Shown here: positions 28,371 through 37,283 of the stretch, one piece after another
How the letters are laid out: each line of letters opens with the position of its first letter
Numbering within the stretch: the first letter of the stretch is position 1
Notes under the pieces: model-generated
What the model was told of the DNA's origin: nothing
What the model saw: the letters and a program-made list of their open reading frames with translations, nothing else
Database searches by the model: none
Source: Octopus vulgaris
Lineage: Eukaryota
Direction: 5' to 3'
Length of the DNA stretch: 64,000 nt
Assembly (NCBI GenBank): GCA_951406725.2
Contig: OX597818.1
Span: 97,216,001 to 97,280,000, forward strand
Translations under genes and position numbers: made by a program

Positions 28371-30526
28371 TTATCCTTTCTACTAAAGGCACAAGGCCTG
28401 AAATTTTGCGGGGCGGGGACTAGTCGATTATATGGACCCCAGTGTTTCACTGTTACTTAATTTATTGACCCTGAAAGGAAGAAAGGCAAAGTCGACTTCG
28501 TTGGAATTTGAACTCAGAACGTAGCGGCGGGCGAAATATCATTAAACATTTCGCCCGGCGTGCTGACGATTCTACTCGCTCGCTGTTTTAAATATAATAA
28601 TCCTTTCTACTAAAGACACAAGGCCTGAAATTTTGGAGTGAGGGGACTAATCGATTACGTCGATCCCAGTGTTTCACTGGTACTTAATTCATTGACCCCG
28701 AAAGGACGAAAGGCAAGGTCGACCCCCGTGAAATTCGAACTCAGAACGTAGCGGCAGACGAAATATCGCTAGGCATTTCGCCCGGCGTGCTAGCAATTCT
28801 GCCAGCTCGCCGCTATTGATTTCAGTTTTTGACATAAGGCCAACAATTTTGGTGGAAGGGAATAAGTCGATTACGTCGACCCCAGTGTTCAACTGGTACT
28901 TATTTTATCGACTTCGAAGGATGAAAGGCTAAGTCGACCTTGGCGGAATTTGAACTCAGAACGTAAGGACTGACGAAATACTGCTAAGCATTTTGCCCGA
29001 CGTGGTAACGGTTCTGCCAATGATCCAGTTAATTCAGAGAAAAAAATAGAAAAGAAAACGATAAAAAAAGGGAACTTAACTCGATCTAGTATATAGCAAG
29101 GGGGAGAGCGAGGAGGGCGGCACCTTTTGGGTCGGCTGTCTATACTTGTACTGGGGGTGAAGGCGGCAAACTCAAGAGCTGCCCCAGGCGGCATACACCT
29201 TTAGCTACACCACTGACTCGATCTTGGTAGGATCTGAACTGAAAATGTTGCAAGACGATATCAAATATGTAAGATCTGTGTCCAACACATACACATTACC
29301 GGTTTAATCACTCCCCCGTCTCAAACAACAACCTAACGAGTATTAAGATTAGTATCGTTTGAAAAATAGAAAAGAAAAACATACAATCAATTAAGAAAAT
29401 AAAGAAACCACATTCTTTGGAAAACAAAATCTATGCCAATAATTAACCGAAGCAAAAGGTGCTGTTTGAAGTCACCCGCACCGATCAATCATAAGGTCAG
29501 GAGAAAATTGACTGGATTGGCAAAGTACTTTTACGTGAGAAGCTAAAACCTTGTGGCATTTTCTTCACCCATGCCAGGTCAGAGAGGAAACTTCGTGACT
29601 GCAGTTTCAATGAAGATATAACTCATCATGCCTTTAGTTATTTGACCCAACATCAACCGGATTAATTAATACGTCGAAAAACGTGATCTCCTTCGAAATA
29701 CGATACACCATTTTCCTTCGACACATAGATGATTGCACAACCTTACATCGAACTATGTCACTATGTACATGAAAACTAGCACATACACATATATACGCAT
29801 ACATACATACATACATACATACATACATACATACATACATGCATGCATACATACATACATACATACATACATACATACATACATACATACATACATACAT
29901 ACATACATAAACACACACACGCACGACACACACACACACACACACACACACATGCATATGCATATAGATGTGTATATATGTATGTCTATATACTTATATC
30001 TATATGTGTGTGTGTAAATGTAAGAGAGTATTTATACATAGTTGCACACGCATACACCTACACATGAACACACACCTACACACACACATACACATATACA
30101 CATGCGCACAATTTTGGGGTTTAGTTGATATATATATAATTCAGTTCCTGGATTTAGTTTGCTAAATCCGAGAAAGAACACGTTATGTATTCCCATTTCT
30201 GTCTCTTTATAAGTGAACATGATGAAATGTGCAAGAGATCCTGTTATACTAAATACTTATAGACTGGAGAGGAAACGATTCCTGTGATTATAGAAGAAAA
30301 AAAGGACTTCGTTAATCTTGCTTCACGTCAAATTAATAGGAATGAAATTCTGTTTTTAATAAGTGATATGATATAACTGTTTACATTTTGAAATATTTCT
30401 TTGATTGAACAATTAGCCAGTGATTCTCGTTGATTTCTGCTGATAAAAACATTTTTAAAAAGACTTATGGAGCAACGTTGAGAAGAAATATTGATGTATA
30501 AAACCCAGCAAAAAAAGCAGGTGAGC

Positions 30527-30597
<71 letters not shown>

Positions 30598-30905
30598 TTA
30601 TGCTTGACTTTTGCTTTACATTTGTACAAGTTGGCTCCAAGTCTCACCCAGAGACCTCAAGAGACAACAAATTGGAAGTTCAAGTTGGTGTTATGCCTAG
30701 GGTGCCATATATTTGGTTTTGTACCTAGTGTTGTTCTAGAAAATGTTTAAGAAACCATAAGAAAATTATGTGTTTGTTTTAAAACTTGAGATTACATAGA
30801 AAATATTTTGCGTAGGATATGGGCAGTTCCCATGAGCACTATCTTTTGAATTTCTGCCATTTGAGGGTTTCCTGGTATCTGAGCTAGGTAGCATAAAACT
30901 GTTAC
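30527..30905 (-). mobile_element. Dong/R4-clade LINE 3' end with (TAA)n tail
   Basis: Minus strand encodes MAEIQKIVLMGTAHILRKIFSM* followed by UTR and (AAT)n. Confidence 0.75.
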
Positions 30906-30914
30906 ATGCTATAT

Positions 30915-32600
30915 TAATTAGTAGAGATGTCTTGAGGTTTTGTGACAACACTTCTCAAATCTCAAGAACCTTAGAATTCTTGCAGAATACAAGATTGCAC
31001 ATTGCTGTAGGTCGACAATGCGAGTCCCAATTCTGGTATCCTTCTGACTATTAGGTAGCAGTTTGGGCATTGTGTCAAGTGCACCAATTATCACGCACAA
31101 AGAGCAATTGTCATCTTTTCTTCCACATTCCCTTCATCTCTCTGGTTAAGTCCTGATATTCAATAGTTGTTTCAACTTCTTTGGAATCCATTCTATTGAT
31201 TTGCAAGGTTTTTGATCTTGCACTATTTTTTATCTAGTCTTCTTGTTTCAATAGTATGGTCAGTCTTTATGGGGAAATTCCATAAAATCCTGTAATTATT
31301 ATTCTCTGTCACAACCTCTGGCTTGTGTTCAAACCACATTTCTGCTATTTTGAAATCACTCACTCGGTTAACATCTCAATGCACTCTTTTACCCACATAA
31401 TTCTACCTGTACTTACGCACTTTTTGTACAAGCTTACAACATTCACTCAAGTTACGCCTAATACTTTCGTTTCCTTTCTCACAGATTCTGCGTTTGCTCC
31501 TTGATTGGGGTTTATCAATTTTTCCCTTTATCAAATTCACTCTAATGGCTTGTTCCTGAAGCGCCATACATAAAACTTCGTCAGCCAAAGCCAACATTCT
31601 TCTAACACTCGATTTATTGCATGAACTGGCCATATAAATCCTTCTCTTTCGAGTTATTTGTTATTCTCCTATTGTTTCAGTAACTTTTCAAAGATTTATA
31701 GCCACCGATAGTATTCCTTCTTCACTATGCACAAATACAATATCTTAGTTGTAACGACATCTGTGTTTACTAATTCTCTGCTTCCTTCTTTTCTTTATAG
31801 GCGGCGCCTGTCGATATACTTTAAGTGTAGTGCTCGTCTGCATTATAAGCAGCTTCCTAGTTCTGTCTAAGTTCTATAGCTCTATATCTGTCCGTTTTAT
31901 AAAAGGATCGGAGCATTCTAATACTGGCATGGCTCATGTATTCATTGCTTTGATAATAATTCTTCTACTTAATTTTGTTTCGGGCACCTTCCTAATTCTT
32001 CTCGGGTACTCTTTGAAGATTTTTTCCCTTATTTTCCTTTTTCATTATACTATCGTCTTGCAATACCTCTAGGTACTTGTATCCCGCATTATTCTCAGCT
32101 ATCTTGGGATAATTTTATGCCATCAGAATTTATATTTCTGCTTCTCTTTCTAATTAATATTACACACTTATTTGCCCCAAACTGCATCCCAATATTCTTG
32201 CTAAATACTTATACTATTTTGATTAGAGAATCCATTTCTTTCCCACTATTTTAATTATTGAAGTCATTTGTATAAAGATAGTAGCATATTTTCATCTCAT
32301 AGGTAAGCCTGGATTTTCTCAGTATACTGTCAGAGGGATTAACACAATGACGAAAATAGAGAGAGTGAGTCTCCCTGGAATATTACCTCCCACTGCGTAT
32401 TTACACATTTCCTAACGATTCGTTTGCTCATGTTCTACTTCCTACGGTCTCATTGCTTTTCCCAAAAGGCTGTTTATCTTCTCATTGATTCTAAGTGTAC
32501 TCGGTCTTTCGAAGAAGCCAGAAGTGTGGAACATTGTTGTAAGCCTTCCTGAAGTCCGTCAAACCAATAGCTAAATTTTTCTTTGTTATTCGCACTTCAT
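30915..32600 (-). mobile_element. Degenerate Dong/R4-clade LINE (RT, CCHC, REL remnants)
   Basis: GIFQGDSLS, GYKYL, ALQEQAI...RICEKGNESI..LSEC, VIIGALDTMPK...LQQCAILYSARILR. Confidence 0.8.
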
Positions 32601-32786
32601 TTACGTTCTGAGTTCCAATTCCGCCGAGATCGACTTTATCTTTTCGGGGTCGATGAAATAAGTACCAGTCGAGTACTTGGGTCGATGTAATTGACTAGCC
32701 ACTTCCCACAAAAATTTCAAGCCTAGTGCTTGTAATGGGAATCCTCCTCCTCGTCGTCGTCGTCATCGTCGTTGTCGTCATCATCG

Positions 32787-32847
<61 letters not shown>

Positions 32848-32849
32848 TA

Positions 32850-33981
<1,132 letters not shown>

Positions 33982-34047
<66 letters not shown>

Positions 34048-34872
34048 TTTCTTTCTTCAAATATTCTTCCATTTCGCGCTGAGAGTGTTTTCCGTACACC
34101 TAGGGCAGAGGAGCTCATTGTATGCATTCCCAAGTACTTATAGCCCGTCTCTTCTATCTGCTTCATAACCTCCCCCCGACAGTATCGTTAGCCCGTCCAT
34201 ACATTTGATTTTGCCTCTCTTCAAGACTTACCACACCACACTTTCTCAGTCCGAACTCCATTCTGATATCAGCACTGAAGGTATACACCGTATCAACGAG
34301 GGAACTGACTTGGGCTTCATCTTTACCATAAAGTTTGAGGTCATCCATGAATAATAAATGGCTGACTTTTTGTTGGCGGCTTTTGAATAAATACCCAGCT
34401 TTTGCTTTCCTCAGAATCAGTGTTAGTGGTATTAAGCACAGTACAAAGGTCAGTGGGGACAGGCAGTCCCCTCGGAAGATGCCCCTCCCAATTTCTACTG
34501 TCCCTAAACTTCTTCCGTAAGCTGTCAGGGCCGTCCTCCAATTCACCATACTTTTTCCAAGTAATTGCTCAATATTCGATGCAATACCAAACAGGTTCAT
34601 ACATTCCATAATCCAAGAATGTGGGATCATATCGTACGCCTTATGATAGTCGATCTATGACATGGCTAAATTAGTTTTCCTCCTCTTGCAGTCTCTAAGT
34701 ATAGTTTTGTCTATCAGGCGCTGACTCTTGGTACCTCTGCACTTACGCTTGCAACCCTTCTGCTCATGTGGAAGGACTCCATTTTTTACCAGATGTTCGT
34801 ACATTGAATCTGCGAGTATTCCAGTCAATAACTTCCACATAAGTGGCAAACAGGATATCGGCCTGTAATTGT
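33982..34872 (-). mobile_element. Dong/R4-clade LINE fragment (RT core) with (TAA)n tail
   Basis: LMWKLLTGI...EQKGC...IPHSWI...GIFRGDCLSPL...HLLFMDDLKLY...FGLRKC...GYKYLG, joined to a short 3' end. Confidence 0.9.
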
Positions 34873-34980
34873 CTATAAGCGCCTGTTGAAAACGGGTCGA
34901 TGTAATCGACTTAATCCGATCCCTGCAAATTTCAGGCCCTTGTGCCTATAATAGAAAGGACCACCACCACCACCACCACC

Positions 34981-35021
<41 letters not shown>

Positions 35022-35499
35022 AGCGGTGGCGGCGAGGTTGTCTGACAAAATGCTTAGTAGCACTTCTTTCAGCTTTGCGTTCTGAGTCCAAATTATTTAT
35101 TTTTTTAAATTAGGTACAAGGCCAACAATTTTAAGGGGAAGGCGATAGACACCATCGACTCCAGTACTTGAATAGTATTTTACGTAATCGATCCCGTAAG
35201 GACGAAAGGCAAAATTGACCTCTGTGGGACTTGAACTCAAAACGCAAAAACCCAGTGAAGTCAGCCTTACTTTTTATTCTTCTGGGGTTCATCAAATAGT
35301 TTACTATTTCAGTTAACTCTCTAAGAAAGACATTATGTTTTCTTGTTAAGGTAGCCTGTGAGAAAGCAAAATTATATGTCTGGCTCAGAAATGCAACTAA
35401 GTATTGTATTAGGTACGGGTTGTCCTCATGAGACCTTCTAGGTCATCATTATAGACATTCAATGGGCAATTTTTTTTATCATGTTAATTAAAATATCAA

Positions 35500-35675
35500 T
35501 GCCTTCTTTTAATTTTAATTTTAATATTTCGTAAAATATCATTTCAGACTGCCGAACCGTCCTCAGCGCCAACGAACGCCAGTATTTTCTTAATCATCAA
35601 TCAGCTCTGAAACTGAAAGGTTGGATCATTTTTTTCTCTTAATCTTCATCAACACGAAACGGGCGAACAATTAAA
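35500..35675 (+). promoter_or_regulatory. Splice acceptor (atttcag, 35541-35547) and 5'-UTR of the deacetylase exon
   Basis: T-rich tract then atttcag, 128 nt before a ATG preceded by AAA; implies an unlocated upstream non-coding exon. Confidence 0.5.
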
Positions 35676-37283
35676 ATGAAACTGTTAATCTCAAAACAAC
35701 CACTTGCTCTACTTATTGTTATCACATTATTAAGTATATCGAACGGTCAATATGAATGCAATTCATTGAACTGCGTGCTTCCGAACTGCAATTGTAAAAG
35801 CTCAAATATACCACATGGGTTGTCGAAAGATGTCGTACCACAGCTTGTCATGATTACATTTGATGATGCAGTCACAACAGATAACTATGAGACCTACAAT
35901 CATTTAATGACCGGAATTACGAATCCGAACGGCTGTCCAATCAGTGCTACTTTCTTTGTCTCACACGAATACACTGATTACAAGACAGTACAGCAACTCC
36001 ATTCACAGGGACACGAAATTGCCAGTCATTCGATTTCACATCGTTTTCCACCATCTTGGTGGCAAACAGCTAATTATACTGATTGGTATTCGGAAATACA
36101 GGGTCAGCGTGAAATGCTTTCTACTTGGGCTCATATCGATAAATCCGAAATCAAAGGTATGCGTGCCCCATTTCTACAGCCTGGGGGAAACTGGCAATTT
36201 CAGATTATTTCAGATTTAAAACGCGATGGTTTTAAATATGATGCTTCTTTAGTCTCTTACATTCATAAAATTGATCCATACGCTCCTCCAATATGGCCGT
36301 ATACCCTAGACTTTCCTTCAGTTGATGATTGTGGGGTAAAACCGTGTCCTGATTGGACATTTCGTGGTTTATGGGAAATTCCATTGGTCGAATACGAAGA
36401 CAAAGACGGTACTCTTTGCGCTATGTTAGATGAATGTGATGCAGCTAGATCAGAAGAAGAGCTTTATAATGTCATTATGAAGAACTTCGAGAACCATTAC
36501 AATACCAACAGAGCTCCTTTCGGAATTTATATGCATTCACCGTGGTTAAAAAATCCTTCTAATTTTAATGTGGTTCGGCGATTTATGCAAGACATAGCTA
36601 CTCGGGGTGATGTTTGGTTTGTGTCACAATCAAAAGTACTTGATTGGATACAAAGTCCTAAGACACTTCAATCGATGGACACGTTTTCATCATTTAATTG
36701 TTGGTTACACCGCAGCCCCTGGGTGTGTACAGACGACCAGTCTATTACATGTGTCTATGATACTTCTGGATTTCTAGTCTGGCCGAGAAGAATTTCAAAA
36801 AGAAATGCTGTTTATCCGAAAACTAATATTTCTACTGTCTTAGATCAGGAGTATTTCAATCGGCAACAAGCTCGAGCAACACGTAAAATGAAGCTTTGGA
36901 GTCAGTCGACCGGATTAAATTTTCCAGGTAGGACTACAGAAGCCCTTTATAATGACGCAACTCCATCTTACGACTATGGAGAAGCATATGGTGTATATTA
37001 CAACGGTCAAAGTGAACCAGGCTTCATACCATATCCAAAACCAAATGAAGATGGAAATCATCAAGAAGGTTATTATTCTGAAGAATCTGGAACACCAGAA
37101 CGAGAAGCAGGTGACGCCAAATTAACATCAAATCTTCTTGCGTCTATTTTAGGTCCAAAAAACAAGGCGAGAATCGGTGTTAGTCGTAAAAAGAGACAGT
37201 CCAACACATTCCATGAACTTCACATATGTTCGGAATATTGTCCCTTTCGATACCCTTGGCTTAACAATATCGATGGCCAATAA
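35676..37283 (+). CDS. Secreted chitin/polysaccharide deacetylase (CE4, NodB homology; catalytic-domain-only, CDA7/8/9-like), 535 aa, intronless CDS
   Basis: Signal peptide (~aa 1-24). Cys-rich CNSLNCVLPNCNC, then motif 1 TFDD (aa 61-64), NPNGCPISATFFVSHEYTDY, motif 2 HSISH (118-122), motif 3 RAPFL (163-167), YDAS, NRAPFGIYMH, DVWFVS, and the terminal CPFRYPWLNN typical of arthropod/mollusc CDAs. Confidence 0.96.
   Translation: MKLLISKQPLALLIVITLLSISNGQYECNSLNCVLPNCNCKSSNIPHGLSKDVVPQLVMITFDDAVTTDNYETYNHLMTGITNPNGCPISATFFVSHEYTDYKTVQQLHSQGHEIASHSISHRFPPSWWQTANYTDWYSEIQGQREMLSTWAHIDKSEIKGMRAPFLQPGGNWQFQIISDLKRDGFKYDASLVSYIHKIDPYAPPIWPYTLDFPSVDDCGVKPCPDWTFRGLWEIPLVEYEDKDGTLCAMLDECDAARSEEELYNVIMKNFENHYNTNRAPFGIYMHSPWLKNPSNFNVVRRFMQDIATRGDVWFVSQSKVLDWIQSPKTLQSMDTFSSFNCWLHRSPWVCTDDQSITCVYDTSGFLVWPRRISKRNAVYPKTNISTVLDQEYFNRQQARATRKMKLWSQSTGLNFPGRTTEALYNDATPSYDYGEAYGVYYNGQSEPGFIPYPKPNEDGNHQEGYYSEESGTPEREAGDAKLTSNLLASILGPKNKARIGVSRKKRQSNTFHELHICSEYCPFRYPWLNNIDGQ

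Follow-up and report, generated by a model that had tools for sequence, protein, structure and literature searches.

An octopus chitin deacetylase with a Cys-free insert flanked by conserved candidate convertase sites

Introduction

A chitin deacetylase (CDA) encoded in the genome of Octopus vulgaris carries a long Cys-free insert close to its C-terminus, and the pairs of basic residues found at both ends of this insert are conserved in all 13 sequences of the clade to which the protein belongs. The insert is probably a generic spacer that convertases excise by cutting at both ends, which would leave a two-chain enzyme. The gene is located in a window of 64 kb (the whole stretch of DNA that was analysed), and its features are listed in Table 1. 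An initial annotation of this window had proposed proinsulin-like processing of the protein; each coordinate and motif that it gave is correct, and both of the basic sites that it named are conserved across the clade. A cleaved or two-chain CDA was not found in our literature search, which lay mostly outside subscription journals.

Table 1. Gene features and predicted products of the octopus CDA, in window coordinates (a slash marks the predicted cut)
Feature	Position	Strand	Basis and remarks
Upstream non-coding exon, 3' end	30488..30520	+	Loose-end consensus of the X2 and X10 contigs matches here, followed by GTGAGC
5' UTR GT-AG intron, 5027 nt	30521..35547	+	Junctions in the X2 and X10 contigs; contains a reverse-transcriptase fragment
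ORF, 535 aa, CE4 chitin deacetylase precursor	35676..37283	+	ORF call, Pfam and structure match
Likely signal peptide, aa 1-24	35676..35747	+	Hydrophobic stretch read by eye; modelled helix at aa 9-23
Predicted heavy chain, aa 25-376, 40.8 kDa bare	35748..36803	+	NodB barrel, five motifs, 12 Cys
Site 1, RRISKR/NAV, aa 371-376	36786..36803	+	K-R pair with Arg at P5 and P6; K/R-R in register in 13/13 of the clade
Insert, aa 377-503, 127 aa, 14.1 kDa	36804..37184	+	Cys-free, mostly predicted disordered, no Pfam match
Site 2, RKKR/QSN, aa 504-507	37185..37196	+	R-X-K-R; ends 10 residues before the tail Cys in 13/13
Predicted light chain, aa 508-535, 3.4 kDa	37197..37280	+	C518 and C522; last strand and C-P-x-x-Y-P-W tail

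The gene and its transcripts

The protein is encoded by a single-exon ORF of 535 codons. In contigs of four runs from three studies (X1, X2, X8 and X10), the ORF is found in one piece from position 35545 onward with no internal joint, and contigs of run X13 cover it in fragments. Each of these five runs also has a piece that starts at 35545 and carries extra letters upstream. The upstream letters of X2 and X10 match positions 30488-30520, which are followed by a GT donor, and positions 35545-35547 read CAG. Thus, the X2 and X10 contigs join the donor at 30520 to the acceptor and represent spliced transcripts that retain the insert; the runs were guessed to be RNA, none is recorded as RNA, and the contigs are called transcripts on account of this splice junction. 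A large run of unrecorded kind (X15) reads unbroken through the acceptor into the intron. Splicing out of the insert had been named in advance as an objection to the processing model, and no such joint is present in the contigs examined.

The notion that the insert is an annotation artefact, either an intron left unspliced or a piece of a wrongly called gene, arises from the RefSeq model of the Octopus bimaculoides protein (XP_014787134.1, here P0002), which splices out a GT-AG stretch of 144 nt corresponding to window positions 36700-36843. However, this stretch holds three conserved Cys (C342, C351 and C359) together with site 1 and not the whole insert, its removal takes away these three Cys and likely leaves three others unpaired, and it is conserved as protein in all members of the clade. 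In addition, the contigs of four runs, which begin at the 5' UTR acceptor, are unbroken across it, and the RefSeq intron was rejected as the main form. The 144-nt joint is found in no contig of X1, X2, X8, X10 or X13, a kind of assembly from which rare variants drop out. Its removal in P0002 is likely a gene-model error or a minor isoform, and we give almost no credence to an artefactual insert.

The genome has one match of full identity to the protein, and the other 16 matches (N-terminal part) are 33-52% identical. Seven allele differences fall within the ORF, of which the insert holds one, a synonymous change. Two further features were seen in the window: a reverse-transcriptase fragment (PF00078; 34163-34630, reverse strand) that lies inside the 5' UTR intron of the gene, and a tetraspanin exon (PF00335; 327-743, forward strand) that belongs to an unrelated neighbour.

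Enzyme identity

By its domain, its motifs and its predicted fold, the protein belongs to the animal CE4 chitin deacetylases. It is 96% identical to a protein of O. bimaculoides, matches PF01522 (NodB, Polysacc_deac_1) at 38.6 bits (cut-off 23.1) and matches two silkworm CDA structures. All five active-site motifs are present, namely TFDD (aa 61-64), HSISH (aa 118-122), RAPFL, AMLDE and YMH, for which the BmCDA counterparts are TFDD, HSITH, RAPYL, AMVDS and YFH. Motifs 1-5, which include the catalytic Asp and the Asp-His-His metal triad, are kept in six of six clade representatives. Judged from these motifs, the octopus protein would de-N-acetylate chitin. According to the main text of the silkworm study, BmCDA1 carries the motifs yet requires accessory proteins (PMC6463723). 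The octopus protein has a hydrophobic N-terminus and 14 Cys, and the enzyme is likely secreted.

The insert and its composition

The insert contains 9.4% Gly, 8.7% Tyr, 7.9% Glu and 7.1% Pro, and it has no Cys. Since Tyr makes up 4.6% and Pro 6.7% of the core (aa 26-370), the Tyr bias of the insert is mild and Pro is not enriched, so that the earlier description of a Tyr/Gly/Glu/Pro-rich segment stands for Tyr in a weakened form and fails for Pro. A Pfam search with the insert gave no match, and an ESM Atlas search with aa 340-535 gave no usable one. The Tyr content reaches 8-9% only in the five Octopus inserts and is 0-3% in the other eight. A role of the peptide in DOPA or sulfotyrosine chemistry, which the initial annotation had suggested, was therefore rejected as a feature of the clade. 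The internal RATRK (aa 400-404) was likewise rejected as a third site because it reads RATHK in three of the five Octopus sequences and is missing elsewhere. A block of the form SEESG..E.E..G..+ (aa 468-490, window approximately 37075-37150) is weakly common to octopus and cuttlefish-like inserts, and it includes S-x-E, the motif of the Fam20C kinase.

Comparison with other chitin deacetylases

From 357 fetched proteins, 250 with a recognisable C..C-P-x-x-Y-P-W tail were compared, and 107 that were tail-less or partial were left out. The compact tail of single-chain animal CDAs has a loop of 8-23 residues separating the first tail Cys from the last one upstream in 236 of the 250 (13 residues in 188), a set that is redundant and rich in arthropod isoforms, whereas the corresponding loop of the octopus protein, from C359 to C518, has 158 residues. 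Thirteen sequences, the window protein included, have loops of 57-209 residues, and the remaining one of the 250 is P0002. This bears out the position claimed for the insert and its absence from other animal CDAs. An extra domain of P0153 has a loop of 34 residues with no basic pair. Cnidarian catalytic-only CDAs (P0015 of Stylophora, P0016 of Nematostella and P0025 of Rhopilema) resemble the octopus protein in having a signal-like N-terminus, a catalytic domain and a tail, with 41-43% identity, but their loops are 11-15 residues long, contain no basic sites and belong to proteins outside the insert-bearing clade.

The 13 inserts are all Cys-free and range from 26 to 178 residues (26, 68, 127 and 159-178). 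Their bearers fall into five 90% clusters and four lineages with core identities of 51-70%, and on the catalytic domain alone they form one clade with a support of 100/100 (61 rows) and, in a quick tree (53 rows), of 99. P0006 and P0007 branch deep (core identity 51-56%), and P0003 matches a fragment of Acanthosepion pharaonis. No clade member beyond the five clusters was found among the best 120, 120, 120 and 150 rows or at 45 loci, many of which are incomplete or interrupted by introns. Among the matches listed, no member comes from a named bivalve or gastropod, which does not imply absence from these groups.

The positions of the basic pairs are nearly fixed relative to the conserved Cys. 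From the C359 equivalent to the end of the site 1 K/R-R, the distance is 17 residues in 11/13 sequences and 16 in 2/13, and in every one the site 2 K/R-R finishes exactly 10 residues short of the C518 equivalent. As a control, the 236 short loops contain KR or RR in five cases and R-X-K/R-R in none. When whole loops were shuffled (200,000 times per sequence, n = 5), both registers were hit in a fraction of 0.00018-0.0017; as the registers were read from the same sequences, the test is fair for the non-octopus lineages only, and its null ignores shared ancestry. Because both dipeptides are kept while the sequence between them is unalignable, ancestry alone is not expected to explain them. The edges of disordered loops often carry basic clusters, and the protein could remain a single uncleaved chain whose basic residues are kept for contacts with an acidic core or a polyanion, or for sorting. 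Against this stand the exact register, the Arg at P1 and the Lys or Arg at P2 at both ends in four lineages, the Arg at P4 of site 2 in 12/13, and the location of both sites in low-confidence parts of the predicted structure; we regard an uncleaved chain as improbable.

The two sites differ in how well they match a furin consensus. Site 2 is R-X-K-R in 12/13 (RKKR, RWKR, RDKR or RSKR), the exception being the PWKR of P0148, which lacks the P4 Arg. Site 1 varies more (RRISKR, KRISKR, HSISKR, HRISKR, RGRR and RRRR) and is R-X-K/R-R in only 3/13; the HSISKR form (4/13) has no Arg or Lys at P4-P6 and is a poor site by furin rules. This difference would fit a protein that in most cells is cut at site 2 alone, with the light chain staying attached and the heavy chain ending in a disordered arm, formed by the insert, which could anchor the enzyme in the matrix. 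The weak block near the insert end points the same way (its alignment score between octopus and cuttlefish-like inserts is reached by 9 and 16 of 1000 shuffles). Conversely, site 1 keeps its K/R-R in register in 13/13, in the two lineages that branch deepest it reads R-G-R-R or R-R-R-R, and the residues that follow it (NAV, HAV, HAI, GSI or DTT) are of the kind that convertases accept. We consider a single cut at site 2 fairly unlikely. The Gln-started light chain of the initial annotation holds for 12/13 sequences and gives way in P0006, where Trp directly follows site 2; pyroglutamate is possible and not required.

Between the sites, little of the sequence is shared. The inserts of P0006 and P0007 align to no other insert above shuffles (7/7 pairs, local alignment), and octopus and cuttlefish-like inserts have only the one weak block in common; tail identity between lineages is 36-75%. 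Within lineages, the inserts of the two Octopus proteins are 92% identical and those of P0003 and P0004 are 72% identical, which corresponds to divergences of 8 vs 3% and 28 vs 11% for insert and core, the insert thus changing about 2.5 times faster. The chemistry of the inserts is also distinct by lineage: those of Octopus are Tyr/Gly/Glu-rich with a net charge of -2, those of P0003 and P0004 are Arg/Pro/Asn-rich with net charges of +14 and +16 and contain 5-6 inner KR/RR, and that of P0007 has 11.8% His. Such compositions, together with the identity kept within lineages, would suit an enzyme that is cut at both sites for the purpose of releasing a working peptide (a matrix binder, an antimicrobial or a signal) tuned in each lineage. 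However, no composition, length or motif is common across the clade, the insert of P0006 is reduced to 26 residues, no Pfam match was obtained and the insert diverges much faster than the core, all of which argue against a working peptide as the purpose of the cuts; we judge it unlikely.

Several other relatives have unusual C-terminal regions. In P0202 and P0305, which are related, this region holds an insertion of another kind, which contains Cys, giving seven Cys vs five in the region, and lacks flanking basic pairs. Eight octopus CDA paralogues clustered at G000:C4:48.0-48.3 Mb (L002-L005 and L007-L010) end at or just after the barrel-final W-x-C and are without the entire four-Cys C-terminal subdomain, and many further tail-less relatives were seen. 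The subdomain is therefore dispensable in some CDAs. At G000:C15, L011 and three other matches correspond to long open frames of 862-1329 aa with CDA domains. Two of the frames hold two matches apiece, and the frames group with long proteins of bivalves and gastropods. An unspecified chitin deacetylase is among the top 20 haemocyte transcripts of cuttlefish (PMC7551771).

Predicted structure and the chitin groove

In an AlphaFold2 model built with 70 sequences in the alignment, the core is confident, pLDDT falls below 50 at aa 377-386 and 413-505, and a low-confidence helix spans aa 386-412. Both basic sites are in low-confidence parts (ten-residue blocks with pLDDT 49 and 48). The tail (aa 511-530) has pLDDT values of 87 and 80 and forms a strand at 513-517, in agreement with the earlier expectation of a disordered insert and a tail packed on the core. 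The model superposes on BmCDA8 (5z34) over 353 of 361 residues with a Z score of 47.0 and an rmsd of 2.0, covering aa 24-535 and thus reaching the C-terminus, and the 28-residue tail is predicted to dock at the position of the C-terminal strand of the silkworm enzyme. When the heavy chain was modelled alone, the pLDDT was 68 and 56 at aa 355-374, compared with 89 and 89 at aa 351-370 in the full model. This drop would fit a tail that completes the subdomain; it carries little weight, since chain ends score low anyway.

According to the main text of the silkworm study, the C-terminal loops of BmCDA8 include an antiparallel beta9-beta10 pair, and its substrate cleft is shaped at one end by Phe347 and Tyr361 (PMC6463723). 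By alignment (BmCDA8 numbering with a chain offset of 18, checked on Asp63), Phe347 is one residue before the Cys that matches C359 and Tyr361 is four residues before the Cys that matches C518. The equivalents of these residues therefore flank the insert, which on that description of the cleft lies between two groove-end residues. The Tyr361 equivalent in octopus is Glu514, so this end of the groove would differ from that of BmCDA8. Both BmCDA8 (5Z34) and BmCDA1 (5ZNS/5ZNT) resemble the octopus protein in overall identity (36-38%), structural match (Z 47-48), motifs 1-5, a loop insertion, the C-terminal loops with the beta9-beta10 pair and the same C-terminal five-Cys pattern, but they are single chains with a short inter-Cys loop and no paired basic sites, in place of the 158 residues and two sites in octopus (PMC6463723).

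The arrangement of disulfides bears on whether two chains would stay together. The equivalents of C87 and C342 are lost together in P0033 and P0271, which are sisters and count as one event. This joint loss suggests that C87 pairs with C342, leaving C351, C359, C518 and C522 to bond among themselves. The C-terminal Cys of BmCDA1 are presumably paired crosswise, as we take its database annotation to state. In the octopus protein, we infer that C351 and C359 are bonded to C518 and C522, which would link both chains; if the pairing were instead local (C351-C359 and C518-C522), the tail would be held non-covalently. The word 'disulfide' is absent from the main text of PMC6463723, and our search found no relevant paper on the pairing.

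Proposed processing

Excision of a generic spacer, which we think probable, can be described as a series of steps. The precursor would fold as a single chain, its tail placed as in insects and its insert protruding as a loop from the beta9-beta10 hairpin. Late in the secretory pathway, convertases of the furin/PC type may then cut on the C-terminal side of R376 and of R507; the genome has seven matches to the convertase P domain. The products would be a catalytic chain of 40.8 kDa, a 28-residue tail chain of 3.4 kDa and a peptide of 14 kDa, and the two chains would likely be held by two disulfides and a shared beta-sheet. In the weakest step, a largely sequence-independent spacer would crowd the end of the chitin groove, and its removal would tune or switch on activity. 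The idea that the spacer restrains activity comes only from the position of the insert. Against such gating are the 26-residue insert of P0006, which is short for a steric block, the Glu in place of Tyr361 and the eight paralogues without the subdomain. The evidence for spacer excision as a whole comes from four independent lineages only, which also counts against it.

We tentatively raise the possibility that the protein is a latent pro-enzyme of an old CDA clade kept in octopus and cuttlefish. Removal of the spacer beside the groove would then switch on a two-chain enzyme at secretion and free a lineage-specific peptide. In Octopus this peptide would be acidic and rich in Tyr, in the cuttlefish-like proteins strongly cationic and in a third lineage His-rich.

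Comparison with known processing systems

The C-peptide of proinsulin and relaxin and the gamma peptide of the yeast K1 and K28 preprotoxins are variable, Cys-free connectors with paired basic sites and Cys-bearing chains on either side. The octopus CDA would be like these precursors in its processing logic, with no homology; it is a CE4 barrel and not a member of the insulin/relaxin superfamily. Unlike proinsulin, its product would be an enzyme, and the spacer lies within a hairpin, the ancestral fold being intact in other respects. Other secreted proteins become two-chain by an internal cut or the removal of a segment, for instance through the plant-specific insert of phytepsin-type proteases, the B domain of coagulation factor VIII, the linker of complement C3 and pearl-oyster Pif. 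The insert of the plant proteases folds into a conserved saposin-like domain, the linker in C3 has four residues and Pif is cut once. To our knowledge, none of the phytepsin-type proteases, factor VIII, C3 and Pif is a carbohydrate esterase. By analogy, the octopus CDA has two of the traits of the spacer-excision class, namely paired sites conserved in position and a variable, Cys-free spacer of low pLDDT.

Implications

The activation of animal CDAs is an open question, and most insect CDAs are poor enzymes in vitro according to the main text of the silkworm study (PMC6463723). A CDA that is naturally split and has its convertase sites next to the groove would offer a second route of control besides accessory proteins. 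The hairpin marks a place where the CDA fold accommodates large inserts or, should cleavage occur, an interrupted chain. The processing reading also predicts specific neo-termini for cephalopod proteomics. If the latent pro-enzyme proved true, a CE4 deacetylase would for the first time be seen under zymogen-type control, and the formation of chitosan could be timed in a new way.
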